64,000 bases of DNA from Clostridiales bacterium Firm_07 (GTDB lineage: Bacteria; Bacillota; Clostridia; Oscillospirales; CAG-272). The stretch covers positions 273,079 to 337,078 of the forward strand of contig LVAM01000010.1 of assembly GCA_001604005.1 (NCBI GenBank). Direction: 5' to 3'. This document shows positions 19,057 through 55,252 of the stretch, piece after piece; within the stretch, counting starts at the first letter, position 1, and each line of letters begins with the position of its first letter. The notes beneath the pieces were generated by a model that searched no databases, was not told the origin of the DNA, and was given only the letters and a program-made list of their open reading frames with translations. The position numbers and the translations under genes were made by a program.

Positions 19057-19132
19057 TGGAGCGGATTACGGGGATCGAACCCGCCACCTCGACCTTGGCA
19101 AGGTCGCGCTCTACCAAATGAGCTAAATCCGC
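19057..19132 (-). tRNA. tRNA-Gly (anticodon GCC), CCA encoded
   Basis: The reverse complement folds as a cloverleaf: GCGGATT acceptor, anticodon arm CGACC-TTGCCAA-GGTCG, T arm GGCGGGTTCGATCCCC, 3' CCA. Confidence 0.95.
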
Positions 19133-19135
19133 GTG

Positions 19136-19211
19136 TGGTGCCTCCGGTCGGAATCGAACCAACGACACGGGGATTTTCAGTCCCCTGCTCTACCGACTGA
19201 GCTACAGAGGC
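19136..19211 (-). tRNA. tRNA-Phe (anticodon GAA), CCA encoded
   Basis: The reverse complement is GCCTCTGTAGCTCAGTCGGTAGAGC..., with anticodon arm GGGGA-CTGAAAA-TCCCC, a GGTTCGATTCC T loop and 3' CCA. Confidence 0.95.
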
Positions 19212-19216
19212 AAAAA

Positions 19217-19293
19217 TGGCGACCCGGATGGGACTCGAACCCACGACCTCTAGCGTGACAGGCTAGCGTTCTAACCAACTGAACTACCGGGCC
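19217..19293 (-). tRNA. tRNA-Asp (anticodon GTC), CCA encoded
   Basis: The reverse complement is GGCCCGGTAGTTCAGTTGGTTAGAAC..., with anticodon arm CTAGC-CTGTCAC-GCTAG, a GGTTCGAGTCC T loop and 3' CCA. Confidence 0.95.
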
Positions 19294-29424: not shown

Positions 29425-29500
29425 GGGGCATTAGCGCAGTTGGGAGCGCACAACACTGGCAGTGTTGGGGTCAGGGGTTCGAATCCCCTATGCTCCACCA
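29425..29500 (+). tRNA. tRNA-Ala (anticodon GGC), CCA encoded
   Basis: The sequence is GGGGCATTAGCGCAGTTGGGAGCGC... The anticodon arm is CAACA-CTGGCAG-TGTTG. The G3:U70 identity pair is present. The T arm is GGGGTTCGAATCCCC, with 3' ACCA. Confidence 0.9.
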
Positions 29501-32587: not shown

Positions 32588-32616
32588 TTGCATTCCATTT
32601 TTATTTGTATTATAAT
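32588..32616 (+). promoter_or_regulatory. Sigma-A-type promoter of the six-gene GAF-ABC/STAS/PP2C operon
   Basis: TTGCAT-17 nt-TATAAT in an AT-rich stretch. The roughly 70-nt leader contains the palindrome ATATCGATAT. Confidence 0.65.
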
Positions 32617-32691
32617 CTATACGTGATGTTCATAGATGTTTGATATGAGAAGCACATATCGATATCCAAAGCAACAAGGAGACAGACGGAT

Positions 32692-33912
32692 ATGTCGCAA
32701 GAAAATCGATTTGCAAAAGCCACTTGGCAGATTATGGAGCAACTCCTGGAAGTGGATAACCTGGAAGACGCGCTGTCGGGCAGTCTTGAAACCATTGTCA
32801 ATACACTGAACAGTGAAGCGGGCGCCATTTGGTTTCTCGACCCCAAAACCGATCGCCTTTGTCCCCTGTTTCACATCGGACCGGCGGATATCTCCGACAT
32901 CACGGTGGAAAACGGGCTTGGCATCGAGGGGCTTGTGACCAAAACCGGCAAATCGATCATCGTGGAAGACGCGGCAAACGACGCCCGCTTTGACGGCTCG
33001 GTCTTTGACGACAACGGCCTTGTGACGCAGACGATGATCTGCGTGCCGCTCAACAATCTGCACGACGTGATCGGCTGTGTGCAGATCGTCAACAAAAAAG
33101 ACGGCAAGCACTATGACAAGGAAGAATTGCAGCTGTGTGAACGTATGGCGTCTCTCGCCGCCATCACCATTGAAGAAAAAGGGCTTTTGATCGACTTCAA
33201 GGAGAAAAAAGAGACCTTGATCTCGCTCAAAGACGTCATCAAAGAGTTTCCTTCCGGCGACGGCGTGTCACGCGTGCTCAAAGGCATCAACCTTGACATA
33301 TACAAAAACGAGTTCGTGGTGGTGCTGGGCGAATCGGGCTGCGGCAAATCCACGATGATGAACATCATCGGCGGTATGGACTTTTTGACCGAAGGAACGA
33401 TTTTGGTGGAAGGCAAGGATTTTTCGCACCCCACCGATGCCGAGCTGACCGCGTTCCGCCGCAAATACGTGGGCTTTATTTTCCAATCCTACAACCTGAT
33501 GCCCAATTTGACGGCGGAAGAAAACGTACAGTTCATCGCGGATCTGGTCGATGATCCCATGCCCGCCCCGGAGGCTATCGCAAAGGTGGGTTTGGCGCAA
33601 CGCGCCGGCAATTATCCGAGCCAAATGTCGGGCGGTCAGCAACAGCGCGTTTCCATCGCCCGCGCCATCGTGAAAAAGCCCAAACTGATTTTAGCCGACG
33701 AGCCCACGGCGGCGCTTGATTATACCACCAGCATCGAGGTGCTGAAAGTGATCGAGGACATCGTCAAAAATGACGGCAGCACCGTGATGATGATCACGCA
33801 CAACCCCGAAATCGCCAAAATGGCGGACCGTGTGGTAAAGGTGCGCAACGGCAAGATCGCCAGCATCAAAAAGAATATGCACCCCCTGCACGCCGAAGAA
33901 TTGGTTTGGTGA
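32692..33912 (+). CDS. GAF domain fused to an ABC transporter ATP-binding domain (MacB/LolD-type)
   Basis: Residues about 1-165 form a GAF-like domain (AIWFLDPKTDRL...GLVTKTGKSIIVEDAANDARF...MICVPLNNLHDVIGCVQIVNKK). The ABC motifs follow: GESGCGKST (Walker A), MSGGQQQRVSIARA (signature) and LILADEPTAALD (Walker B). Confidence 0.85.
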   Translation: MSQENRFAKATWQIMEQLLEVDNLEDALSGSLETIVNTLNSEAGAIWFLDPKTDRLCPLFHIGPADISDITVENGLGIEGLVTKTGKSIIVEDAANDARFDGSVFDDNGLVTQTMICVPLNNLHDVIGCVQIVNKKDGKHYDKEELQLCERMASLAAITIEEKGLLIDFKEKKETLISLKDVIKEFPSGDGVSRVLKGINLDIYKNEFVVVLGESGCGKSTMMNIIGGMDFLTEGTILVEGKDFSHPTDAELTAFRRKYVGFIFQSYNLMPNLTAEENVQFIADLVDDPMPAPEAIAKVGLAQRAGNYPSQMSGGQQQRVSIARAIVKKPKLILADEPTAALDYTTSIEVLKVIEDIVKNDGSTVMMITHNPEIAKMADRVVKVRNGKIASIKKNMHPLHAEELVW

Positions 33913-33918
33913 TCGGCT

Positions 33919-36750
33919 ATGAAAAAAACGCAGCTGAAAGACGGACTTCGCAACATCCGGAAACAAAAAGTTTCGTTTCTTTCCATCGTCATCATCGCGA
34001 TGCTCGGCGTTACCACGTTTCTCGGTATCGACTATACGGCAACGGGTATGCGCCGCAACGGCTCTTCCCTGTATGAAAAACTGAATTACCGCGACGTCGA
34101 GGTGGTTTCCACACTGTTATTGACCAATGAGGATCTTGACAGTTTGCGCGGCGTGGCGGGCGTGACCGACGCGGAACCGGTGCGTTATGCCAATGCGAAG
34201 CTCTCCTTTGGGGAGGCACTGGAAGACGTCGACGTCGTGTCGCTGACACAGCGCATCAACCGCGTCGATCTGCGGCAGGGGCGCTTGCCCGCCGCCGAGG
34301 GCGAATGCGCCGTGGAGCCGAGCGCGGTCGAAACGCTGGGGCTTTCCGTGGGCGACCGTATCCAAGTGACGGAAGCGGATACCTCCTTTTTGAAAAACGG
34401 CGATTTCGTCATCACCGGCATCGTGGCGCATCCGGACCACATCAATTCCGTGGCGACGAAAGTGCCATATGTGATGGTAACGTACGACGCTTTCAACGAC
34501 GAAACGTTAAACGGCTGTTTTATGCGCGCCGAAACGGTCTTTGACAAACCGGCGGGCATCAACCGTTTTTCCGAAAAATACGACAAACTGACGACCGCGG
34601 TGCTGGAAGGAATTGAAGAGATCGCGCCCGCTTGCGTAAAACGGCGACAGGAAAGTTTGCAAAAACAACTCCAAGACGGCTTTGCGCAGTTGGAAACGGC
34701 AAAAGCCGCCGTGCGCGACAAGGTGCGCATCCCGTTTGAAGAGACGTTTCCCGCCGACAAGATCAGCGGGCTGATATCGTGGGCAACAGTCCGAGAAGCA
34801 GACGTTGAAGATCCCAATGAAACCGCCCGTTATTTTTGGATCACGGAAAATACCCGCGTCGATCTTTCCCATTCGCTGGAAGATTTCTTCGGTTCCATCG
34901 TTCGTTCGGAAAGCGTTCCGAAAGAGTTGTTGGTGGCTTTGTACCAAGCCACACAGCACGAAGACGCGCCGAAAACGGGCACGGAATACGACTATGACGC
35001 CATTCGCGAAGCGCTGGTTAACGCCGCCGCGCAAGCCGGCGACGGATATCGGCAACTCTCCGAGGGCTGTGCTTTGTGGGACGCCGGTCACGCGCGGTAT
35101 ATTTCCGTCACGCGCGACGGGGGACGTTGGCTGTCGTTTGGCGGAAAGGGCAACTCCAGTTTCGTACAACTTGCCGTTGCAAGCGGTAACTTTGCGAAAT
35201 TAAAAGCCACCTTTTCCCTGATGTTCGTGTTGGTGGGTGCGCTGGTCATTTTCGCCACGGTGGGCAAAATGGTGGATGAGCAGAGAAATCAGATCGGCAC
35301 CACCAAAGCATTGGGCTTTTTTAACCGCGAGATCTTCGCGAAATATCTGGGATTCGGAATGAGCGCCACCGCCATCGGCACGGTCATCGGGATCTTTGTG
35401 GCGCGTTTCGCGTTGGAGCCCTTTATGCTAAACGGCTTTAACAAATATTATTGGTTCGATCTGTCCGAATCTTCTTTGGTTCTGTCCTCCACGTTGATCG
35501 TCTCCGGAGCCGGTCTCCTGCTTTCCGCCGCGGCAGTGTGGCTTGCCTGCACGAAATTGCTGCGGCAACCCGCCGTGGTACTGATGCAACCCAAAACACC
35601 GAGCGCCAAAAAGAAAAAATCCGCGGGAAAACGCGTTTTGCCGCTGTATTCCCGCCTGATTTTGATGAATATACGCGCCGACCTCAAACGTGTCATCGTA
35701 ACGGTGGTCAGTGTGACGGGCTGTTGTGCGTTGGTGGTGATCGGCTTGACCTTGCGCGCATCCGTGAAAGGCAGCGTTACCAGACAATACAGCGAAATCG
35801 TTGACTATGACGTCTGCGTGCATTACGATCCCGCCGCGTCGGAAAATACATCAAACGACATACAAACCGTCCTCCAAGAGGCCGGCACGGAATTTACCGC
35901 CGTGTACAGTGCGAATGCCGTTTTTCAAATCGACGATCTGCAAAGCGCGGAGCTGTTTTGCGGCGATATCAAAGAGATCAGCGCCTTTCAACATCTGAAC
36001 GACAGAAATACGGGCGATCCGATCAAACCCACCAATCGCGGCGTACTGTTGCAACGCCGTTTTGCCGAAACGTACGGTCTGGACGAGGGCCACACCTTTG
36101 ATCTCTCGTTAAACGGCACCAAGACAGCCACCGTGCGTGTGGCGGGCGTATTTGAAAACTTTATCGGCCGTTCGATCGTGATGAGCAACGAATACTTTGA
36201 AACGGTATTTGGCGAAACGCCCGTCCCCAACGCTTTCCTTGTGCGCCTCGGCAATGCCGACGCCGACCGACTGCAAAAAGATCTGCAAGCGGTAAACGGC
36301 TATGAAAACATCGCCCGCGCCGATAGCGATCGCTCCATCATCGAAACTTCCACCTCGATGATCGACATCGTGGTGATGCTCTTCATCTTTATGGCGGCGG
36401 TGATGGCGGGCGTGGTACAGTTGAACCTGACGAACATGTACATTTCTCAAAAGAAACGGGAACTGACCATTATGCGCATCAACGGTTTTACGGTGCGCGA
36501 GGTCGTGGGATACGTCTTGCGCGAGACCGTGGTGACCACGGTGGCTGGCATTGTGCTCGGAGTCGGTGCCGGCGCAGGCGTCGCGTATCGCATTATACGC
36601 ACCCTGGAACAGCCTTTCCTGCAATTTGACCGGCGCGTCAGTATCGTCGCCTGGATCGCGGGCGTCGTCATCACGATTCTCTTTACGACGATCGTCAACG
36701 CGATCTGTCTGCGGAAAGTCAAACGCCTGAAACTGATCGATATGGCGTAA
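33919..36750 (+). CDS. ABC transporter permease with two FtsX-type modules and two large extracytoplasmic domains
   Basis: It is 943 aa. An N-terminal TM (FLSIVIIAMLGVTTFLGI) is followed by a long soluble region of about 380 aa, a TM bundle, a second soluble region and a C-terminal TM bundle. This is the typical duplicated FtsX/MacB-like layout. The start is 6 nt after the ATPase stop. Confidence 0.8.
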   Translation: MKKTQLKDGLRNIRKQKVSFLSIVIIAMLGVTTFLGIDYTATGMRRNGSSLYEKLNYRDVEVVSTLLLTNEDLDSLRGVAGVTDAEPVRYANAKLSFGEALEDVDVVSLTQRINRVDLRQGRLPAAEGECAVEPSAVETLGLSVGDRIQVTEADTSFLKNGDFVITGIVAHPDHINSVATKVPYVMVTYDAFNDETLNGCFMRAETVFDKPAGINRFSEKYDKLTTAVLEGIEEIAPACVKRRQESLQKQLQDGFAQLETAKAAVRDKVRIPFEETFPADKISGLISWATVREADVEDPNETARYFWITENTRVDLSHSLEDFFGSIVRSESVPKELLVALYQATQHEDAPKTGTEYDYDAIREALVNAAAQAGDGYRQLSEGCALWDAGHARYISVTRDGGRWLSFGGKGNSSFVQLAVASGNFAKLKATFSLMFVLVGALVIFATVGKMVDEQRNQIGTTKALGFFNREIFAKYLGFGMSATAIGTVIGIFVARFALEPFMLNGFNKYYWFDLSESSLVLSSTLIVSGAGLLLSAAAVWLACTKLLRQPAVVLMQPKTPSAKKKKSAGKRVLPLYSRLILMNIRADLKRVIVTVVSVTGCCALVVIGLTLRASVKGSVTRQYSEIVDYDVCVHYDPAASENTSNDIQTVLQEAGTEFTAVYSANAVFQIDDLQSAELFCGDIKEISAFQHLNDRNTGDPIKPTNRGVLLQRRFAETYGLDEGHTFDLSLNGTKTATVRVAGVFENFIGRSIVMSNEYFETVFGETPVPNAFLVRLGNADADRLQKDLQAVNGYENIARADSDRSIIETSTSMIDIVVMLFIFMAAVMAGVVQLNLTNMYISQKKRELTIMRINGFTVREVVGYVLRETVVTTVAGIVLGVGAGAGVAYRIIRTLEQPFLQFDRRVSIVAWIAGVVITILFTTIVNAICLRKVKRLKLIDMA

Positions 36751-36837
36751 AACACACGGGCAAAAGACAAAAACATCTCCGGAGCGAACGGAGAAACAAA
36801 ATACACTTTACATTACTTTTCAAAGGAGAAAACGAAA

Positions 36838-37134
36838 ATGACCATCAACAAAACGAAAAACGGAACCGAGCTTTTACTTGCCCTTGAAGGACGGCTGGAC
36901 ACGCTGACCGCGCCGGATTTGGAAAAAGAGCTCAAAACGTCTCTTGACGAAGTGACTTCGCTGACACTGGATCTTGATAAGTTGGAATACATTTCTTCCG
37001 CGGGTCTTCGCGTACTGCTTTCCGCGCAGAAAACGATGAGTATGCAAGGGGAAATGAAAGTTTGCCACGTGAACGAAACCGTGATGGAAATTTTCGAGGT
37101 CACGGGATTTTCGGATATTTTGAACATTGCGTAA
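36838..37134 (+). CDS. STAS-domain protein (anti-sigma-factor antagonist family), paralog 1
   Basis: It is 98 aa and SpoIIAA/RsbV-like: LEGRLDTLTAP...LDLDKLEYISSAGLRVLL, with a Ser in the phosphorylatable position. Confidence 0.9.
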   Translation: MTINKTKNGTELLLALEGRLDTLTAPDLEKELKTSLDEVTSLTLDLDKLEYISSAGLRVLLSAQKTMSMQGEMKVCHVNETVMEIFEVTGFSDILNIA

Positions 37135-37166
37135 ATCGACACAATATTTTTGAAAGAGAGGATCTT

Positions 37167-37775
37167 ATGATGAAATCAGCAATCATTACCGTAACCAGCG
37201 AAGGAAGCGGCTTCAACGAAGCCCTGATGATGACCGAAGCGCTTGGGACCGAACGCGGACTTGCAAGAAAAAGCCTTTTGCACCTGCGTTTGCTTTCGGA
37301 AGAACTCTTCGGTTTGCTGCGCGGCATTGCCGGCAAGGTGGAGGCAAGTTATTGGCTTGAAGTCGAAGAAAAGCGTTTTGAGCTCCATATGAAATCGGAC
37401 GTCAAACTGACCACGGAAATGCGGGATCAGTTCCTTGCCGCTTCTTCCAGCGGCAAAAACGAGGCGTCGAAAAGTTTTATGGGTAAGATCCGCGTGATGA
37501 TCGCCAACGTGTTGCTCTCCGCGAAAGAAGCGTTGCCTTACGCGCTCATCAATACCGCCGCCGCATATCCGATGGGCGGAATGGCAGGAGAGAGCGCCTC
37601 CGTCTGGTCAATGGCGTTTTACAAAGAAGAGATCCAAAAGCACATCAAAGACAGCGCGGAAGCGTCGGAGGCGTGGGACGAACTGGAAAAATCCATCGTC
37701 GCCAACATCGCCGACGACGTCAAGGTCAAGATCGCGGGCAAAAACGTCGAAATCACCGTGTGCAAAGCGTTTTGA
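37167..37775 (+). CDS. Hypothetical 202-aa protein, possibly a degenerate SpoIIAB/RsbW-like GHKL fold
   Basis: The ATG at 37167 follows the RBS agagagg; the track start at 37062 lies inside the STAS gene. It has no TM segment and no N, G1 or G2 ATP-binding boxes. LRLLSEELFGLLRGI and the C-terminal DDVKVKIAGKNVEITVCKAF resemble the first helix and last strands of anti-sigma kinases, from memory only. Confidence 0.55.
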   Translation: MMKSAIITVTSEGSGFNEALMMTEALGTERGLARKSLLHLRLLSEELFGLLRGIAGKVEASYWLEVEEKRFELHMKSDVKLTTEMRDQFLAASSSGKNEASKSFMGKIRVMIANVLLSAKEALPYALINTAAAYPMGGMAGESASVWSMAFYKEEIQKHIKDSAEASEAWDELEKSIVANIADDVKVKIAGKNVEITVCKAF

Positions 37776-37811
37776 GCGCATTGAACATCACTTTTTCAAA
37801 GGAGAGTCATT

Positions 37812-38108
37812 ATGACCATCAACAAAACGAAAAACGGAAATGAGCTTCTGCTTTCTCTTGAAGGACGGCTGGACACGCTGACCGCGCCGGAACTGGAAAA
37901 AGAATTCGGAGCGTCTCTTGCCGGCGTCACTTCGCTGGTATTGGATTTTGAAAAATTGGAGTACATCTCTTCCGCGGGTCTGCGCGTGCTGCTTTCCGCG
38001 CAGAAAGTGATGAACGCGCAAGGGCAAATGAAAGTTTGCCACGTAAACGAAACCGTGATGGAAATTTTCGAGGTCACGGGTTTTTCCGACATTCTGACCA
38101 TCGAATAA
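37812..38108 (+). CDS. STAS-domain protein, paralog 2
   Basis: It is 98 aa, with 81/98 residues identical to paralog 1 by hand alignment. It has the same EYISSAGLRVLL motif. Confidence 0.9.
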   Translation: MTINKTKNGNELLLSLEGRLDTLTAPELEKEFGASLAGVTSLVLDFEKLEYISSAGLRVLLSAQKVMNAQGQMKVCHVNETVMEIFEVTGFSDILTIE

Positions 38109-38119
38109 GGGAACGACCG

Positions 38120-39589
38120 ATGAAAGAAAAACTGCGTTCCCTCTTTTATAAACTGCGCGTTCGGCTCACCGCGGACGAAATGTTCCACGAGACGGAGGTG
38201 CAGGCAAACCGACTGGGCGCGCTGATCCTTTTGTGCAGCGGCATCATTCTCGTGCTGATCCTCGCACTGACCGCGATGGGCGTGTTTCTTCTGCCGCTCA
38301 GTTCGGTTTTTTCGCCCACGATCCAAGCGATCGTGGAGATCATCATACTGCTGATCGTCTGCCACGCCGTGAAATGCGACGCCTGGTGGTTAAAGCACCT
38401 TTTGATGATCGGTCTTGTGTTCGTATATGCGCGTCTGGATTGTATGTTGACGCACAAAGCGGCGATCTTAATGGTGTTGCCGGTGGTATTCAGCAGCCGC
38501 TATTTTTCGCGACGGCTGACGGTTTTTACGTCGATCCTTTCCACCGTGGTATTCTTCTTTTCCGCCGCGTGGGGCGCCACGCACGGTCTCATCAACCTCA
38601 ACATCGTCACCTTCCCCGCCGGCACGGTGATGATCGCGACGGGCGGCTTTTTGGGTGAGGCGATCCAAAACGCGGGGGCAAGCGATAAAATGCTTGTGAC
38701 CAACACCCTGATTTTCGATTATCTGCCCAAGTGGTTGATGTTTTCCATCACGTCGATCATCAGTTGCAACATCGCGCGCCGCGGACGGGAAATGGTGGTC
38801 ACACAGCACGATAAGGACGTCAAGAGCGCCCGTATCGAATCCGAACTGAATCTTGCCACCCGCATTCAAGCGGATATGCTCCCCAACATCTACCCTGCCT
38901 TTCCGGATCGAAAAGAGTTTGACATCTATGCCACGATGGATCCGGCAAAAGAGGTCGGCGGCGATTTTTACGACTTTTTCCTGATTGACCCCGATCATCT
39001 CTGTATGGTGATGGCGGACGTGTCGGGCAAGGGTGTTCCCGCGGCGCTCTTTATGATGGCTTCCAAGATCATTCTTGCCAACAATGCGATGATGGGCAAG
39101 AGCCCCGCGCAGATCCTTTCCGATACCAACGCCGCGATCTGTTCCAACAACCGCGAGGAGATGTTCGTCACGGTGTGGCTGGGCATATTGGAAATCTCCA
39201 CGGGCAAATTGACCGCCGCCAACGCCGGGCACGAATATCCCGTTATCAAGCGTTCCGACGGCGGGTTTGAACTCTTCAAAGACAAGCACGGTTTTGTGAT
39301 CGGCGGTATGAGCGGCGTCCGATACAAGGAATACGAACTGACGCTGACACCGGGATCCAAAATCTTTGTCTACACCGACGGCGTGCCCGAGGCCACCGAT
39401 TCCGCGGGCAGTATGTTCGGCACCGACGCTATGTTGGCGGCGCTGAACAAAGATCCCGCGGCGGAACCGGAACGAATACTCAAAAACGTGCGGGGCGCCG
39501 TTGACGAGTTTGTCAAACAAGCGGAGCAATTTGACGATCTGACGATGCTTTGTATGGAATATAAGGCACTTTCCGATACGGAGCAATAA
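38120..39589 (+). CDS. Membrane-anchored PP2C-family (SpoIIE/RsbU-type) serine phosphatase
   Basis: The N-terminal roughly 240 aa carries about 6-7 hydrophobic segments. The C-terminal PPM domain has the motifs VGGDFYDF, VMADVSGKGVPAAL, VYTDGVPEA and FDDLTMLCMEY. The ATG is at 38120. Confidence 0.85.
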   Translation: MKEKLRSLFYKLRVRLTADEMFHETEVQANRLGALILLCSGIILVLILALTAMGVFLLPLSSVFSPTIQAIVEIIILLIVCHAVKCDAWWLKHLLMIGLVFVYARLDCMLTHKAAILMVLPVVFSSRYFSRRLTVFTSILSTVVFFFSAAWGATHGLINLNIVTFPAGTVMIATGGFLGEAIQNAGASDKMLVTNTLIFDYLPKWLMFSITSIISCNIARRGREMVVTQHDKDVKSARIESELNLATRIQADMLPNIYPAFPDRKEFDIYATMDPAKEVGGDFYDFFLIDPDHLCMVMADVSGKGVPAALFMMASKIILANNAMMGKSPAQILSDTNAAICSNNREEMFVTVWLGILEISTGKLTAANAGHEYPVIKRSDGGFELFKDKHGFVIGGMSGVRYKEYELTLTPGSKIFVYTDGVPEATDSAGSMFGTDAMLAALNKDPAAEPERILKNVRGAVDEFVKQAEQFDDLTMLCMEYKALSDTEQ

Positions 39590-39605
39590 GATTTTTGAAT
39601 CGAAT

Positions 39606-39650
39606 GAAAAAACACGCCGCAAACCTTTCGGTTTGCGGCGTGTTTTGTTT
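39606..39650. terminator. Bidirectional intrinsic terminator closing the six-gene operon
   Basis: aaaaaACACGCCGCAAACC-tttc-GGTTTGCGGCGTGTtttgtttatttt. Confidence 0.85.
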
Positions 39651-41298
39651 ATTTTCCGCAATGCGCGGCGATCATCGCGTTGATCTTTTCACGGATCGCG
39701 ATATGCGCCTTGGCGCTTCTCGGATAGGTATAAAAATCCAAAACGCCTTCCTTGTGCAGGAAATCCAGCACTTTTTCTCTGCCGATGTATTTTTCAAGAG
39801 TTTTCAGCGCGCGATAATCGTACATCGCCTCGCCCAGCGCCTCGGCGCGGTTGGACATCAGGCACCCGCCTTTTGTGGGATACACGATGAAACTGTCGCC
39901 GCTGTAAAAGCCGCGCCCGCCGGCGGTCTCAAAATAAGGATCCAGTTCCCGCAGGGAGAAGAAAGTATTGTAAAAATTGAAACCCCAGTGAAGAAATCCG
40001 TCAACGCCCGCTTCGTAGAGCCCGAAACCGAGCACCCTGGTGCGTTGCAAGGGCATATCGAACATTCTGCCCGTGTAATACGCGTTGTTGGCACCGCAAT
40101 AATAGACAAATACGTTTTCGGGTTTTCGGCTCCGAAATTCCCTTTCGTACGCTTTGATGGAGGGGACGGGGATATCGACCACGCCCCGCTCGTAAAACGA
40201 ATAGTTACTCAACGCGTCAAGCGTGGGAAAATCGCCGATCAGACCTTTGACCAAATGATAAAGTTTGGTATAGGTTTCCAAATGATCCTCGTGCGGCTCG
40301 TCGGTCAGGTGGAAAAACACTCTTTTTGCCAAACCTTTTTCGGTCAAAAAGCGGCAGAGTTGCGGCAGGAGTGCGGTGAGGAACGCCGCATATTCCGGAC
40401 AAAGCGAAGAGGTTTCCCAACCGAAAATCCTCTTTTCTCCCTCGGGGGTCGAGGCGATGATCTTCGGACAAGCCTTGCCGCCCCATTGCGTAAAGAGGTG
40501 GCTCATCTCGAAATAGCGGATCCCGTGCGCTTCGGCAAAATCCAAAAAGCGGTCGAGTTTGGTAAAATCAAACGTATACGCGCCGTCCTCAAACCGGACG
40601 CCGATCAGTTGTGCCGTTCTGCGCTCCCCGCCGACATAGGTGTCCAGCGGAGGGGTGAAAAGCGGCGTATACAGCAGCGTGTTGCCGGAACGCAAAAAGG
40701 CATCGAGATAACCGGCGAAGACCTCGTAAAACGCGTCGCCGAAGAGTTCCACGTTGTGCTTTGCCTCGATGGCGTCATAGTGCATCCAGGTGGTGAAATA
40801 GAAATCGCTGTCCGCGATCTTTTCGGGGATCACCGTGAGCGCGTATTGCGCCTCGCCAACGTTTTGTCCCTCTTTGTCGAAAATCGTCAGTCGGATCTCG
40901 TGTTTGCCGGGCGCGACGTTGTCGGTATCGACCGTAAACCAGAGTGACTGCCATTTTTGCAAAGCGAAAATGAGATACCCCGTATCCACGGGACGGAGCA
41001 GTTCCGGATACATTCCTTTATCGACGCCGTAAGAATAATCGTCCACCTGCGGCGGCAGATTGTCGGCGGGCATACACAGTACTTCCCGAACGCGGAGTTT
41101 GTCGCCGAAATCGCTTTCGATTTTCAGCGTATATCCAAACACGTGTTGGAAGTTGTCCGCGGGATTATAAACGGCAAGTTGAAAATGCGCCGTTTCGCCC
41201 GACAGCACGGTTTTGGCGCTCTCCGTGCCCTGCGGCTCGGTCAGGGGAAAGACTTTTTCAAGCGAATGCAGTGTTTTCAGTGTCAGCATATTCGGCAT
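39649..41298 (-). CDS. DUF4091-like protein (putative glycoside hydrolase-like, function unknown)
   Basis: The N-terminal pattern LTLKTLHSLEKVFP...GETAHFQLAVYN and the overall size resemble the DUF4091 family from memory. The ATG at 41298 has better spacing from AAGGAGA than the one at 41304. Confidence 0.6.
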   Translation of the reverse strand: MPNMLTLKTLHSLEKVFPLTEPQGTESAKTVLSGETAHFQLAVYNPADNFQHVFGYTLKIESDFGDKLRVREVLCMPADNLPPQVDDYSYGVDKGMYPELLRPVDTGYLIFALQKWQSLWFTVDTDNVAPGKHEIRLTIFDKEGQNVGEAQYALTVIPEKIADSDFYFTTWMHYDAIEAKHNVELFGDAFYEVFAGYLDAFLRSGNTLLYTPLFTPPLDTYVGGERRTAQLIGVRFEDGAYTFDFTKLDRFLDFAEAHGIRYFEMSHLFTQWGGKACPKIIASTPEGEKRIFGWETSSLCPEYAAFLTALLPQLCRFLTEKGLAKRVFFHLTDEPHEDHLETYTKLYHLVKGLIGDFPTLDALSNYSFYERGVVDIPVPSIKAYEREFRSRKPENVFVYYCGANNAYYTGRMFDMPLQRTRVLGFGLYEAGVDGFLHWGFNFYNTFFSLRELDPYFETAGGRGFYSGDSFIVYPTKGGCLMSNRAEALGEAMYDYRALKTLEKYIGREKVLDFLHKEGVLDFYTYPRSAKAHIAIREKINAMIAAHCGK

Positions 41299-53067: not shown

Positions 53068-53100
53068 GAAGGGGACGAAAAGTCCGAAAAAACATAATAT

Positions 53101-53345
53101 GAAGATAGAGGCGCACTATGCGACCTCGCGGGGATAGGCGCCGTTGCCGTTTGTATCTCCGACGGGAGCGCACGGTGCCGAAGCGAGCGTCCGCGGCGGG
53201 CGTTTTTGCTGGTTTCGCGGCGCATAACCGCGCAACTGTCATCTTTTTTGATGGAGAACTATCTGTATGTTGGGGGTGGAAACCGTGCATTTCTGCTCTT
53301 ATTATAGTACAACTACGGCCGGTTTTCAACCGCTTTTTTTATTTT
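53101..53345 (+). promoter_or_regulatory. Lysine riboswitch (L box) leader
   Basis: Conserved L-box blocks are visible: AGAGGCGC, GGTGCCGAAG and AACTGTCA...GATGGAGAACTATC. A putative terminator helix ending in a T-rich tract (53333-53345) follows, upstream of dapA. Confidence 0.75.
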
Positions 53346-55110: not shown

Positions 55111-55114
55111 ATAG

Positions 55115-55252
55115 GAAAATCGGGGGTGCTGCTTGGCGGCTGAGACGGACACACGTCCGAACCCTTACACCTGATACGGATAATGCCGTCGTAGGGAAGA
55201 TGAAATATTTCGTTTCACCGACCGCGCGGAGCATATCCGCGCGGTTTTTTTC
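55115..55252 (+). promoter_or_regulatory. TPP (THI-box) riboswitch with terminator
   Basis: The aptamer blocks GGGGTGC...CTGAGA...ACCCTT..ACCTGATACGGATAATGCCGTCGTAGGGA are visible. The terminator is ACCGCGCGGA-gcata-TCCGCGCGGT followed by TTTTTT (55221-55251). Confidence 0.85.

Follow-up and report, generated by a model that had tools for sequence, protein, structure and literature searches.

A GAF-ABC ATPase fusion with an FtsX-type permease and partner-switching genes in Clostridia: a probable signal-gated type VII ABC system

The stretch of DNA analyzed here is 64 kb long and is called the window below. It contains an apparent operon of six genes, which encode, in this order, an ABC ATPase carrying a GAF domain (GAF-ABC), an FtsX permease with eight transmembrane segments, a STAS protein, the protein unk202, a second STAS protein, and a membrane PP2C phosphatase. 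GAF-ABC is gene 1 of the operon. The features are as follows.

32588..32616, + strand: putative promoter, TTGCAT-17 nt-TATAAT, read from the sequence as a consensus match, in the 287-bp gap 5' of the operon
32676..32682, + strand: ribosome-binding site AAGGAGA, read from the sequence, with the ATG 9 nt further on
32692..33912, + strand: GAF-ABC ATPase gene, ATG start, 406 aa (open reading frame; Pfam GAF and ABC_tran; AlphaFold2)
32758..33174, + strand: GAF domain, residues 23-161 (Pfam GAF_2)
33001..33027, + strand: GAF lid, V104-F-D-D-N-G-L-V-T112, standing where VDxxTGFxT of cyclic-nucleotide GAFs would be
33217..33909, + strand: ABC nucleotide-binding domain (NBD), residues 176-406, all catalytic motifs intact, MacB-type matches
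33919..36750, + strand: duplicated FtsX-type permease, 943 aa (Pfam FtsX in two stretches, E 4.3e-24; hydropathy)
36838..37134, + strand: STAS protein 1, 98 aa, anti-sigma-factor-antagonist type (Pfam STAS, E 4e-16)
37167..37775, + strand: unk202, novel soluble protein, 202 aa, recurring beside STAS genes
37812..38108, + strand: STAS protein 2, 98 aa (Pfam and NCBIfam), 83.5% identical to STAS 1 (tblastn)
38120..39589, + strand: membrane-anchored PP2C (SpoIIE-type) Ser phosphatase, 489 aa (Pfam SpoIIE, E 1.5e-48)
39609..39655, + strand: intrinsic terminator-like hairpin, 17-bp stem and then a T-run, 20 nt past the phosphatase stop

No other strong terminator was found on the + strand from 32692 to 39700. 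Apart from this one strong terminator, the sites found in the promoter and terminator scans were no commoner than in shuffled controls. The promoter-like site was absent from the list of the consensus scan because its -35 hexamer matches at 3 of 6 positions only. No family was matched in an Rfam search of the 5' UTR, and we therefore think that no riboswitch is present there.

In the 406-aa protein, three Pfam models of the GAF superfamily (PF13185, PF01590, and PF13492 were used) scored above their cut-offs, namely GAF_2 with 50.8 bits against 28.6, GAF with 41.9 against 22.4, and GAF_3 with 33.4 against 27. The GAF_2 match at residues 23-161 is significant (E 2.6e-13) and bears out the initial annotation, in which an N-terminal GAF domain had been claimed. 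The complete ABC cassette that it had described in the same frame was also found, with all of the motifs quoted there and with an ABC_tran match at residues 196-340 (E 3.8e-34). That is, Walker A (GESGCGKST, 213-221), the Q-loop (Q265), the signature (MSGGQ, 312-316), Walker B with the catalytic Glu (LILADE, 332-337), the D-loop (ALD), and the H-loop (H370) can all be read in the sequence. The structure prediction that it had suggested, made here with AlphaFold2, gave a confident two-domain model of the full-length protein, GAF and then NBD (mean pLDDT 87.4, pTM 0.80). In the predicted secondary structure, a helix (3-19) precedes the GAF domain, and the last GAF helix (143-163) is followed by a linker (164-175) and the NBD. 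The pLDDT of the GAF modelled alone was 85.

The GAF-ABC fusion is real and is not an artefact of assembly or gene calling. In each of three homologue searches, 120 of the 120 matches listed consisted of GAF and ABC_tran and were 404-415 aa long. Among the matches listed, about 360 protein clusters in three Clostridia clades possess the fusion, all with generic names, and of the 80 best species-representative genomes, 79 encode residues 1-406 as a single frame. Carriers of the fusion are common among the Clostridia of rumen and gut. The ABC motifs are invariant throughout the family, as is the C-terminal tail of the NBD (N395-x-H-P...W406). In the GAF domain, W12, E42, G44, W47, R55, G63, G75, G77, G80, V82, D97, R99, T112, C117, G128, N134, and C149 are invariant in all three clades. 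Within the window's clade the identity of the GAF domain is 81-87% and that of the permease only 31-58%, and we therefore consider the GAF domain to be under strong constraint.

How frequent the fusion is had been left open in the initial annotation. The architecture proved to be abundant, yet it came without functional characterization in the names and literature searched. That is, the source-given names of the homologues included no functional characterization of GAF-ABC, and the literature searched, mostly outside subscription journals, gave nothing relevant on GAF with ABC, MacB, or FtsX, or on partner switching with FtsX. A scan of metagenome contigs with a cross-clade alignment was keyed on the ABC-generic peptides LGESGCGK and GF[IV]FQ[SA]YN and added no neighbourhood statistics; 77 of its 80 loci were ordinary ABC ATPases, matching from about residue 110 or 170 on.

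A MacB/LolD type had been assigned to the ATPase, and the best structures for the NBD agree with this assignment. The first was the MacB NBD (5lj9), with E 4.5e-57 by sequence and a TM score of 0.91 and 44% identity by fold, followed by LolD (MJ0796/LolD type), BceA, HrtA, YbbA, YtrE, and FtsE. The permease, whose start codon lies 6 nt past the ATPase stop, has eight predicted transmembrane segments and extracytoplasmic domains at about 42-424 and 617-805 (hydropathy). An FtsX-type permease is found 3' of the ATPase in nearly all related loci, and the permeases of relatives reach 1472 aa, with coiled-coil ectodomains. Pfam gave no MacB_PCD match to the window permease at E <=0.01, and the matches in relatives were weak or faint.

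Judged from these matches, the GAF-ABC and FtsX pair is a type VII ABC system (the MacB/LolCDE/FtsEX class). As in MacB, LolCDE, FtsEX, BceAB, YbbAP, HrtBA, and YtrEF, an NBD is accompanied by a permease with FtsX domains, and a large extracytoplasmic domain is predicted between TM1 and TM2 of each permease repeat. In contrast to these systems, the window permease is one fused chain of eight predicted transmembrane segments, and no gene for a MacA-like adaptor or a hydrolase partner was noted adjoining the pair. Five named orthologues were rejected on the basis of NCBIfam scores far below the equivalog or subfamily cut-offs: MacB (205.6 bits, cut-off 966), DevA (202.5, cut-off 295.8), LolD (185, cut-off 307.75), FtsE (171.8, cut-off 264.85), and YbbA (150.7, cut-off 336). 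By these models, GAF-ABC is a relative and not a member of MacB, LolD, FtsE, DevA, and YbbA.

CmpC is an ABC ATPase with a built-in regulatory domain, which concerns nitrate (PMC13287603). GAF-ABC shares with CmpC, MetN, ModC, MalK, and OpuA/OpuC (CBS) the principle of a ligand sensor fused to the NBD and controlling NBD closure. MetN and ModC show trans-inhibition, and the CBS domains of OpuA/OpuC respond to ionic strength and c-di-AMP. The regulatory domains of MetN, ModC, MalK, OpuA/OpuC, and CmpC are found at the C terminus of importer ATPases and differ in fold, whereas the sensor considered here is N-terminal, is a GAF domain, and belongs to a type VII system. The ATPases of MacB, LolCDE, FtsEX, BceAB, YbbAP, HrtBA, and YtrEF are not known to have an N-terminal sensor domain.

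Because a Foldseek search with the full-length model returned NBD matches only, the GAF domain was modelled separately. With the GAF alone, rank 1 was 5w10, an entry named as the complex of the Lcd1 GAF with cAMP (TM score 0.72). A total of 446 PDB chains were found at E <=0.001, and all of the 50 listed were GAF domains or had the GAF fold (TM scores 0.65-0.81). The ligand classes of GAF domains were not clearly set apart in this search, since cAMP-binding, PtsP, Nlh2, fRMsr, and haem GAFs lay between E 1e-11 and 1e-8. By sequence, 19 of 21 PDB matches were GAFs of cyclic-nucleotide phosphodiesterases or of the cyclase CyaB2. The best was again 5w10 (E 1.1e-12) from Lcd1, a Leptospira diguanylate cyclase with a cAMP-binding GAF, and PDE5, PDE6, PDE2, PDE10, and CyaB2 came next. 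On these sequence grounds, the GAF domain of the family probably belongs to the branch that binds cAMP or cGMP.

Among solved structures, the window GAF is closest, by sequence and fold, to these cyclic-nucleotide GAFs (Lcd1, PDE5/PDE2/PDE6/PDE10, and CyaB2). It shares with them the GIxGxV turn, DxRF, the TxxxxCxP strand, and a variant of the NKFDE motif (N-K...Y/F...D/E-L), as well as a position N-terminal to the effector, to which it is joined via its last helix. It differs from them in that the effector is an ABC ATPase, not a cyclase, phosphodiesterase, or diguanylate cyclase, in that there is one GAF and not a tandem pair, and in that the lid of the window's clade reads VFDDNGL where they have VDxxTGF. 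The NKFDE motif consists of N286, K287, F295, D299, and E300 of PDE5 (PMC11977230). The corresponding residues of the window GAF are N134, K135, Y141 (for F), E145 (for D), and L146 (for E). The Asp position is D in most of the family and E145 in the window. The cAMP-binding Lcd1 has N-R-F-D-L and thus also ends in L.

The lid reads VDQITGYKT in PDE5 and VDEKTGFET in Lcd1, and the nucleotide-contact motif of the lid helix, VDxxTGxxT, found no match in the window GAF. In the window's clade D is changed to F105, T to the variable residue 108, and F to L110; F105 and a variable residue 108 were found in 82 of 82 loci of the clade. Outside this clade the lid is D..[T/S]G[F/Y], except for a single lineage with D..SNF. 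The cyclase-linked relatives thus have the lid residues of PDE5 and Lcd1, as in sister-clade GAFs that read VDEETGF; of two relatives with the lid retained, one adjoins a PAS-cyclase gene (P0271) and one lies in a CHASE2-cyclase operon (P0448). In CyaB2, the lid-helix residues D356 and N359 contact cAMP (PMC4411481); we placed the window lid against them by match ranges and shared motifs, not by a printed alignment. The lid is also the least confident part of the AlphaFold2 model, with pLDDT <50 at 102-107.

The remaining four genes of the operon were missed in the initial annotation, that is, the novel protein unk202, the PP2C phosphatase, and two STAS proteins predicted to be phosphorylatable. 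The NCBIfam model ant_ant_sig gave 72.9 bits with STAS 1 (cut-off 53.45) and 72.9-75.5 bits with the two window STAS proteins. STAS 1 has a predicted phosphorylatable Ser pair within YISSAGLR, and this motif with S53/S54 is kept without exception in the 62 STAS proteins from such neighbourhoods. The PP2C phosphatase has about 4-5 N-terminal transmembrane segments (hydropathy). No Pfam, NCBIfam, or PDB match was found for unk202, and its homologues adjoin STAS genes in about 17 related loci, with three STAS-unk202 repeats at one of them (L029). The N-terminal 47 residues of unk202 resemble the start of neighbouring HATPase_c_2 kinases (hhalign probability 80.7%). We did not adopt the view that unk202 is a pseudokinase, since hhalign aligned these 47 N-terminal columns only; from this partial N-terminal similarity, unk202 may stand in for a HATPase_c_2 kinase. 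Such a kinase was not detected in the 64-kb window by the family HMM (E up to 10), and many related loci have one. The window also lacks a class III cyclase, and its operon has no sigma factor gene or other obvious output. The operon partners point to partner-switching control beside, or instead of, a small ligand.

Class III cyclases were found in relatives. Among 12 loci looked up outside the window's clade, 7 have such a cyclase within 8 kb on the same strand. Four of the 7 are PAS-cyclases, whose genes lie upstream or downstream of the pair or abut it directly, and three are CHASE2-cyclases, so that these sister-lineage loci show two cyclase architectures and several gene orders. Two of the cyclase-bearing clusters contain stand-alone cNMP_binding proteins. 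In the window's clade, a cyclase lies within 10 kb in only 1 of 80 loci. The specificity residues of the cyclases were E-G and E-D in the PAS types and K-T in the CHASE2 types, and because they are mixed in this way the ligand cannot be named. Some PAS-cyclases have the Glu-Gly pair as in the guanylyl cyclase Cya2. Candidate Clostridial guanylyl cyclases are thus a further lead from the locus.

Partner-switching genes are enriched about 12-fold beside the pair in the window's clade. In the 80 species genomes of this clade, STAS genes numbered 0.219 per kb at distances of up to 1 kb from the pair and 0.018 per kb at 7.5-10 kb, and 60 of 62 STAS genes were on the strand of the pair. Of the 33 loci with at least 5 kb available on both sides, 22 had a partner-switching gene no more than 5 kb away. 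The arrangements differed in more than 20 ways, and a STAS gene followed by the pair was the commonest one containing such a gene (11 loci). No partner-switching gene was in view in 28 of 80 clade loci, some of which have short flanks, and 3 of the 12 sister loci looked up have neither cyclase nor partner-switching genes. Such genes abound in these genomes, and a few would therefore be expected beside the pair by chance.

At two related loci (L178 and L086), STAS, PP2C, kinase, PAS-cyclase, GAF-ABC, and FtsX genes are all on one strand. The combination of membrane PP2C, HATPase_c_2 kinase, STAS protein, and nucleotide cyclase, with no sigma factor, is like that of SiaABCD of P. aeruginosa and of further partner-switching systems that are sigma-independent. 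In SiaABCD, the PP2C SiaA, the kinase SiaB, and the STAS protein SiaC control the diguanylate cyclase SiaD (PMC8256260). In contrast to SiaABCD, the cyclase in relatives is of class III (cAMP or cGMP) and not of the GGDEF type, the presumed downstream effector is the GAF-ABC/FtsX pair, and the window operon has neither kinase nor cyclase. The window PP2C matched the SiaA model weakly (47.6 bits, cut-off 700).

Since GAF-ABC is common in Clostridia and stands beside signalling genes, it is probably part of a signal-gated transporter. The initial annotation had called it ligand-gated. For the family this is well supported, with cAMP- or cGMP-binding GAFs as the nearest ones and class III cyclases in 7 of 12 sister-lineage clusters, but for the window gene, whose lid is changed clade-wide and whose 64-kb window has no cyclase, it is less certain. 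On balance, we favour the explanation that the pair is a signal-gated type VII ABC machine which was ancestrally gated by a cyclic nucleotide, and that the window copy may be gated via STAS phosphorylation or may still bind a cyclic nucleotide.

The domain identities, catalytic motifs, operon layout, family size, and neighbourhood statistics given above are observations; how many subunits take part, whether gating is allosteric, which ligand is bound, and which way the signal flows are what we infer. The machine may be pictured as follows. Two GAF-ABC ATPases would dock on a single duplicated FtsX permease of eight transmembrane segments. The GAF domain would be the allosteric input, coupled to the NBD by its C-terminal helix, which is the usual output of GAF domains, and would set the ease of NBD closure and ATP hydrolysis. 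Closure of the NBDs would gate the motions that the permease passes on to its extracytoplasmic domains, which are large and evolve fast. The family would be tied to cyclic-nucleotide signalling by its cAMP/cGMP-branch GAF and by the class III cyclase in the clusters of the sister clades, and also to a Ser-phosphorylation partner-switching module of membrane PP2C, STAS protein, and kinase or unk202. Gene order suggests the GAF-ATPase or the cyclase as the target of the partner switching. Since the window operon has only a partner-switching input and the lid has diverged, the window copy would be gated by STAS phosphorylation. The route may be direct, with a STAS protein or unk202 binding to the GAF-ATPase, or indirect, via a cyclase encoded elsewhere in the genome.

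An alternative is that the GAF domain of the window's clade has lost nucleotide binding altogether, and that unphosphorylated STAS protein or unk202 docks on the GAF-ATPase as an on/off switch, the membrane PP2C being the real sensor. The diverged lid in 82 of 82 clade loci, with the former Thr position variable, fits this idea, as do the absence of a cyclase nearby in the window, the many loci in which a STAS gene stands immediately 5' of GAF-ABC and shares its strand, and the presence of two STAS proteins, unk202, and PP2C in an operon without a sigma factor or other obvious output. By analogy, the MlaB-MlaF pair may serve as a precedent. MlaB is a STAS protein bound to the ABC ATPase MlaF, but it lacks phospho-regulation, and the Mla system is of another type than FtsX. 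As in MlaFB, a small STAS gene shares an operon with an ABC ATPase gene, but the window STAS proteins fit the anti-sigma-antagonist family and not the MlaB model (21-23 bits, NCBIfam cut-off 90), and the pair is FtsX-type. Against the idea, the pocket floor (E42, G44, W47, R55, G77-x-x-G80, D97, R99, T112, and N134) is invariant, the cyclase-linked clades included, which argues for a shared ligand site. Furthermore, STAS genes also adjoin the pair in relatives whose lid is intact, and STAS adjacency is therefore independent of the loss of the lid. We regard such docking without nucleotide as unlikely, although it deserves serious weight.

The GAF domain might also sense a transported compound in the cytoplasm or some other metabolite, as a feedback on the pump like that of the C-terminal domains of MetN and ModC. 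A sensor of a cytoplasmic substrate would be less natural here, since the substrates of type VII systems generally lie outside the cytoplasm. Known GAF domains bind many ligands, such as haem, bilins, and formate (PMC4411481), the Foldseek scores of the PtsP, Nlh2, and fRMsr GAFs are near that of the top match, and the altered lid of the clade could mean a new ligand. But the sequence searches retrieved cyclic-nucleotide GAFs almost exclusively, and the clusters of relatives hold cyclases and cNMP_binding proteins. Such metabolite sensing is improbable in our opinion.

We give slight credence to a reversed flow of signal, in which the FtsX/ABC complex is the sensor and the GAF domain relays the state of the transporter to the partner-switching proteins or a cyclase. 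A precedent may be seen, by analogy, in the type VII transporters of the BceAB group, which signal their own activity to a kinase (BceS); BceA ranks among the structures nearest to the NBD. The large and variable ectodomains of the permeases would suit a sensing surface, and no other output is apparent in the window operon. However, the clustered PP2Cs and cyclases bear sensors of their own (transmembrane segments, HAMP, dCache, PAS, and CHASE2), and we therefore consider them to be inputs rather than outputs; known GAF domains, moreover, take in signals and do not send them. Finally, nothing was found in favour of two genes having been joined by frameshift or misassembly, or of a relic in decay, and both can practically be dismissed, as about 360 clusters (90% identity) have the same 404-415-aa architecture, at least 79 species genomes have the fusion gene, the GAF domain is conserved as much as the NBD, and the catalytic motifs are intact.

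Returning to the signal-gated machine, we put forward with considerable reserve an undescribed signalling chain of gut and rumen Clostridia as a possible course of events. An extracellular cue would act on the membrane PP2C or on a CHASE2- or PAS-cyclase, this would lead to STAS phosphorylation and to cAMP, possibly cGMP, and the nucleotide bound to the GAF domain would gate the ATPase. The window's clade would be a derived form, in which a STAS protein or unk202 replaces the nucleotide as the direct gate. If true, this would be the first type VII 'mechanotransmission' ABC machine with a second messenger as its gate.

Type VII ABC systems (MacB, LolCDE, FtsEX, and BceAB) serve in antibiotic and toxin efflux, lipoprotein sorting, cell-wall hydrolase activation, and peptide-antibiotic resistance, and how they are switched on and off post-translationally is largely unknown. 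In Firmicutes, few effectors of cAMP and cGMP have been described, and cGMP signalling is rare in bacteria. As a further lead, unk202 represents a new family of 202-aa proteins that pair with STAS proteins. The GAF-ABC family is large and strongly conserved and is found in abundant rumen and gut Oscillospirales, cultured strains among them; cultured carriers are Pseudoflavonifractor phocaeensis, Anaeromassilibacillus sp. An200, and Ruminococcus sp. JL13D9. It offers a testable case in which an ABC motor may be gated by a second messenger or a phospho-switch.

The GAF-ABC gene of the window and the genes behind the permease that adjoins it are arranged as follows.

32692-33912, plus strand: GAF-ABC, ATG start, 406 residues
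36838-37134, plus strand: STAS1, first gene after the permease
37167-37775, plus strand: unk202, unannotated protein of 202 residues
37812-38108, plus strand: STAS2, protein 83.5% identical to STAS1
38120-39589, plus strand: PP2C/SpoIIE phosphatase with 4-5 N-terminal transmembrane (TM) segments

The gaps between the operon genes are 6-87 nt. By sequence match, a promoter-like TTGCAT-17-TATAAT site and an AAGGAGA ribosome-binding site lie upstream of GAF-ABC, and the sole strong plus-strand terminator (39609-39655), with a stem of 17 bp and a T-run after it, is found just 3' of the phosphatase gene. We read GAF-ABC, permease, STAS1, unk202, STAS2 and PP2C as a single six-gene operon. Its leader holds no riboswitch, and the 64-kb window contains neither a HATPase_c_2 kinase nor a class III cyclase. 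That STAS1 and STAS2 are so alike points to a recent tandem duplication that included the unk202 gene. Rfam also placed in the window, unrelated to GAF-ABC, a lysine riboswitch (53098-53269, plus), a TPP riboswitch (55112-55215, plus), a three-tRNA cluster (19060-19293, minus) and a single tRNA (29425-29497, plus).

The initial annotation had described an N-terminal GAF domain fused to a complete, in-frame ABC cassette, and both halves of this description were borne out. Pfam assigned residues 23-161 to GAF_2 (E 2.6e-13; 50.8 bits against a cut-off of 28.6), with the GAF and GAF_3 models likewise above cut-off, and residues 196-340 to ABC_tran (E 3.8e-34). None of the catalytic motifs is impaired: Walker A (213-221), Q265, MSGGQ (312-316), the Walker B motif (332-337), which includes the catalytic Glu, and H370. 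AlphaFold2 with 59 homologues gave a confident two-domain model of the full-length protein (pLDDT 87.4, pTM 0.80), and the GAF modelled by itself reached a pLDDT of 85. In each of three homologue searches, all 120 of the matches listed carried GAF plus ABC_tran at 404-415 residues, and residues 1-406 lie in one frame in 79 of the 80 best species-representative genomes. Thus the fusion is real, and the chance that it is an artefact is negligible.

The fusion occurs in three clades, all within Clostridia, under names such as "ATP-binding cassette domain-containing protein". The window's clade (74-87% identity to the window protein) consists of rumen metagenome-assembled genomes, labelled Oscillospiraceae, Ruminococcaceae or Saccharofermentans, and a single complete genome, that of Ruminococcus sp. 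JL13D9. A second group (56-67%) comes from rumen and gut metagenomes. The third (about 53-55%) comes from gut Oscillospiraceae, including the cultured Pseudoflavonifractor phocaeensis and Anaeromassilibacillus sp. An200, and its individual clusters are present on up to 194 contigs. When the GAF part alone was compared with 1.84 billion representative proteins, 73 matches fell below 1e-30; about half were N-terminal single-GAF family members or fragments, and the remainder were multi-GAF sensor proteins at 23-34% identity. Because the many relatives bear generic names and the literature searched holds no description of a GAF-ABC ATPase, the architecture is abundant yet uncharacterised. Neither of the two objections foreseen in the initial annotation holds: the GAF match is significant, and the architecture, though abundant, has no functional description in the literature searched.

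The nucleotide-binding domain (NBD; 176-406) is nearest to that of E. coli MacB, both by sequence (E 4.5e-57) and by fold (44% identity, TM 0.91), and the next matches are MJ0796, LolD, BceA, HrtA, YbbA, YtrE and FtsE. Orthology to MacB, LolD, FtsE, DevA or YbbA was rejected, since the NCBIfam scores lie well below the cut-offs. By these sequence criteria the NBD is a relative of all five and an orthologue of none. The permease (943 residues) begins 6 nt 3' of GAF-ABC. Pfam matches FtsX twice in it, and eight TM segments are predicted, with ectodomains spanning about 42-424 and 617-805. It corresponds to two MacB/LolCE-type permease units fused into a pseudo-dimer, and two ATPase copies would be expected per permease. 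Across the genomes of the window's clade the ATPase is 74-87% identical but the adjoining permease only 31-58%, meaning that the cytoplasmic control and motor unit stays constant while the outward-facing part changes. Permease length at these loci (L001-L080) ranges from about 840 to 1472 residues, with coiled-coil-like ectodomains in some lineages and tandem permease genes at some loci, e.g. L002, L008, L013 and L027. One library protein, P0170 (621 residues), joins GAF, ABC and a 4-TM FtsX unit in one chain, a MacB-like fusion with degenerate ABC motifs (Walker A GEDNCGKSA, signature QISISEQQ, Walker B IIAEEP).

Outside the window's clade, the surroundings of 12 distinct family members were looked up. 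At seven of these loci a class III nucleotide cyclase is encoded on the same strand, no more than 8 kb away. It is a PAS-cyclase at four, with four gene orders, and a CHASE2-cyclase at three, with one conserved operon. The PAS-cyclase loci are these.

L092, 7670-8998: PAS-cyclase abutting the ATPase gene, 2-nt gap
L086, 6089-7423: PAS-cyclase two genes upstream; two cNMP_binding proteins, STAS, SpoIIE-kinase fusion
L088, 15086-16489: PAS-cyclase downstream of the permease; two cNMP_binding proteins
L178, 14220-15611: PAS-cyclase in the order STAS, GAF-ABC, FtsX, AP_endonuc_2, PAS-cyclase, SpoIIE, kinase

Stand-alone cNMP_binding proteins thus adjoin two of the four. The CHASE2 operon runs GAF-ABC, FtsX, metallo-beta-lactamase-fold protein, FecR-like or unknown protein, CHASE2-cyclase and surface protein (NHL/SLH or choline-binding), and hints that the product is secreted or belongs to the envelope. 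These gut Oscillospiraceae loci (L093-L096 and L179, around proteins P0448, P0398 and P0474) have a divergent LytTR two-component pair upstream and, except in L179, a carboxylate-reductase-like enzyme (AMP-binding, PP-binding, NAD_binding_4) before GAF-ABC. The lineage of L090 (6449-10248) and L091 has the permease upstream of GAF-ABC; genes for a serine recombinase and a ToxN toxin next to its pair suggest that the context is mobile.

Since the same pair is accompanied by cyclases of two unrelated architectures, and in several gene orders, there is strong evidence that the pair is functionally linked to cAMP or cGMP. The PAS-cyclases have Glu at the Lys specificity position, and at the second specificity position Gly in three lineages and Asp in one; E-G is also what the guanylyl cyclase Cya2 carries (PMC4215837). 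The CHASE2-cyclases have K-T, the adenylyl type. Because these residues are mixed (E-G, E-D, K-T), we rejected naming the nucleotide from them. The PAS-linked cyclases of rumen and gut Clostridia are, by these residues, candidate bacterial guanylyl cyclases.

By sequence, the GAF itself is nearest to the cyclic-nucleotide type. Nineteen of its 21 PDB sequence matches are GAFs of cyclic-nucleotide phosphodiesterases or CyaB2 cyclase, led by Lcd1 of Leptospira (5w10, E 1.1e-12; a cAMP complex per Foldseek) and including PDE5 GAF-A (6e-12), PDE6, PDE2, PDE10 and CyaB2 (4.7e-10). The Lcd1-cAMP structure is also the top fold match (TM 0.72), by Foldseek, which separates GAF classes poorly. The NKFDE motif, described as a hallmark of GAFs that bind cyclic nucleotides (PMC11977230, PMC4411481), corresponds to N134, K135, Y141, E145 (Asp in most of the family) and L146, the same form as N-R-F-D-L in cAMP-binding Lcd1. 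The pocket floor (E42, G44, W47, R55, G77/G80, D97, R99, T112, N134) is invariant in all clades.

The lid (104-112) reads V/F-D-E-x-T/S-G-F-x-T in every cyclase-linked relative, in agreement with VDQITGYKT of PDE5 and VDEKTGFET of Lcd1. The window's clade instead has V-F-D-D-x-G/D-L-x-T there, at each of its 82 loci (x = N, S, Y, G, D or Q). In CyaB2, D356 and N359 of the lid helix contact cAMP (PMC4411481); judged from the match ranges, they probably map to F105 and N108 of the window protein. The lid is the lowest-confidence part of the AlphaFold2 model. The weaker match of the window protein to PDE5 GAF-A (6e-12 versus 1.2e-18 for a cyclase-linked relative) is consistent with lid divergence. 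Given a diverged lid beside an invariant pocket floor, the window's GAF may have altered nucleotide binding, another ligand, or a role as docking surface.

In the 80 species genomes of the window's clade, a cyclase lies near the pair at only one locus, about 10 kb off. Partner-switching genes, by contrast, are concentrated at the pair: STAS density is 0.219 per kb within 1 kb versus 0.018 at 7.5-10 kb, and 60 of the 62 within 5 kb share the strand of the pair. Of the 33 loci with 5 kb or more of flank on either side, 22 have a partner-switching gene within 5 kb, and the arrangements number more than 20 (e.g. STAS then pair; STAS-kinase-PP2C then pair; pair then STAS-PP2C). In Ruminococcus sp. 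JL13D9, STAS, HATPase_c_2 kinase, HAMP-PP2C, GAF-ABC and FtsX are consecutive. All 62 neighbouring STAS proteins keep both serines of YISSAGLR and are thus genuine phospho-switch proteins. Across the family's neighbourhoods, unusual partner-switching fusions also occur (L075 6140-7354, minus; L081 2951-4717 and 4734-6812; L088 2430-3968): a MatE-like membrane domain with a HATPase_c_2 kinase, SpoIIE phosphatase with HATPase_c_2, and STAS with APH and HATPase_c_2.

The unk202 family (about 175-220 residues, unannotated) adjoins STAS genes in the window and at L029, L031, L047, L041 and L067; L029 (15042-17383) carries the run STAS-unk-STAS-unk-STAS-unk-STAS-PP2C. It conserves N-terminal LRLRLLAEEM, central SGKNxAAKGFMG and C-terminal WDELEKSI...VEM, and has no match in Pfam, NCBIfam or PDB. 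Resemblance to HATPase_c_2 kinases is limited to the first 47 residues, and the kinase Asn box is missing. The unk202 protein may be a new partner that binds STAS.

The ligand-gated transporter proposed in the initial annotation gains support for the family from the cyclic-nucleotide-type GAF and the cyclases beside seven of twelve sister-clade members, and is less sure for the window's copy, with its diverged lid and no cyclase in the window. It is unlikely, though to be taken seriously, that STAS or unk202 docks directly and nucleotide binding was lost in the window's clade; the lid and the STAS genes fit this, and the invariant pocket floor does not readily do so. The STAS protein MlaB on the ABC ATPase MlaF is a known precedent. 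We think it improbable that the GAF senses a metabolite or substrate, which the lid would allow and the PDB matches speak against. A reversed, BceAB-like signal flow seems to us very improbable; BceA is among the NBD matches, but the cyclases beside the pair carry sensor domains of their own, as inputs would.

We lean slightly towards a signal-gated type VII ABC machine with GAF input, ancestral cyclic-nucleotide gating and PP2C/STAS control. Through the GAF, NBD closure would be controlled allosterically, the family would ancestrally have been gated by a cyclic nucleotide from the cluster-encoded cyclase, and a PP2C/STAS partner switch would govern the whole system, by a logic like that of SiaABCD, in which STAS controls a nucleotide cyclase. 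In the window's operon, the membrane PP2C would set the phospho-state of STAS1 and STAS2, and this state would be the signal that counts, acting directly on the GAF-ATPase, possibly via unk202, or via a cyclase encoded elsewhere.

ABC ATPases with regulatory domains are already known (MetN, ModC, OpuA-CBS, CmpC). The single parts are all known: cyclic-nucleotide GAFs, MacB-type ATPases, ABC regulatory domains, STAS on an ATPase and STAS on a cyclase. Undescribed in the literature searched is their combination: a type VII ATPase with a GAF at its N-terminus, in gene clusters with class III cyclases and partner-switching proteins.
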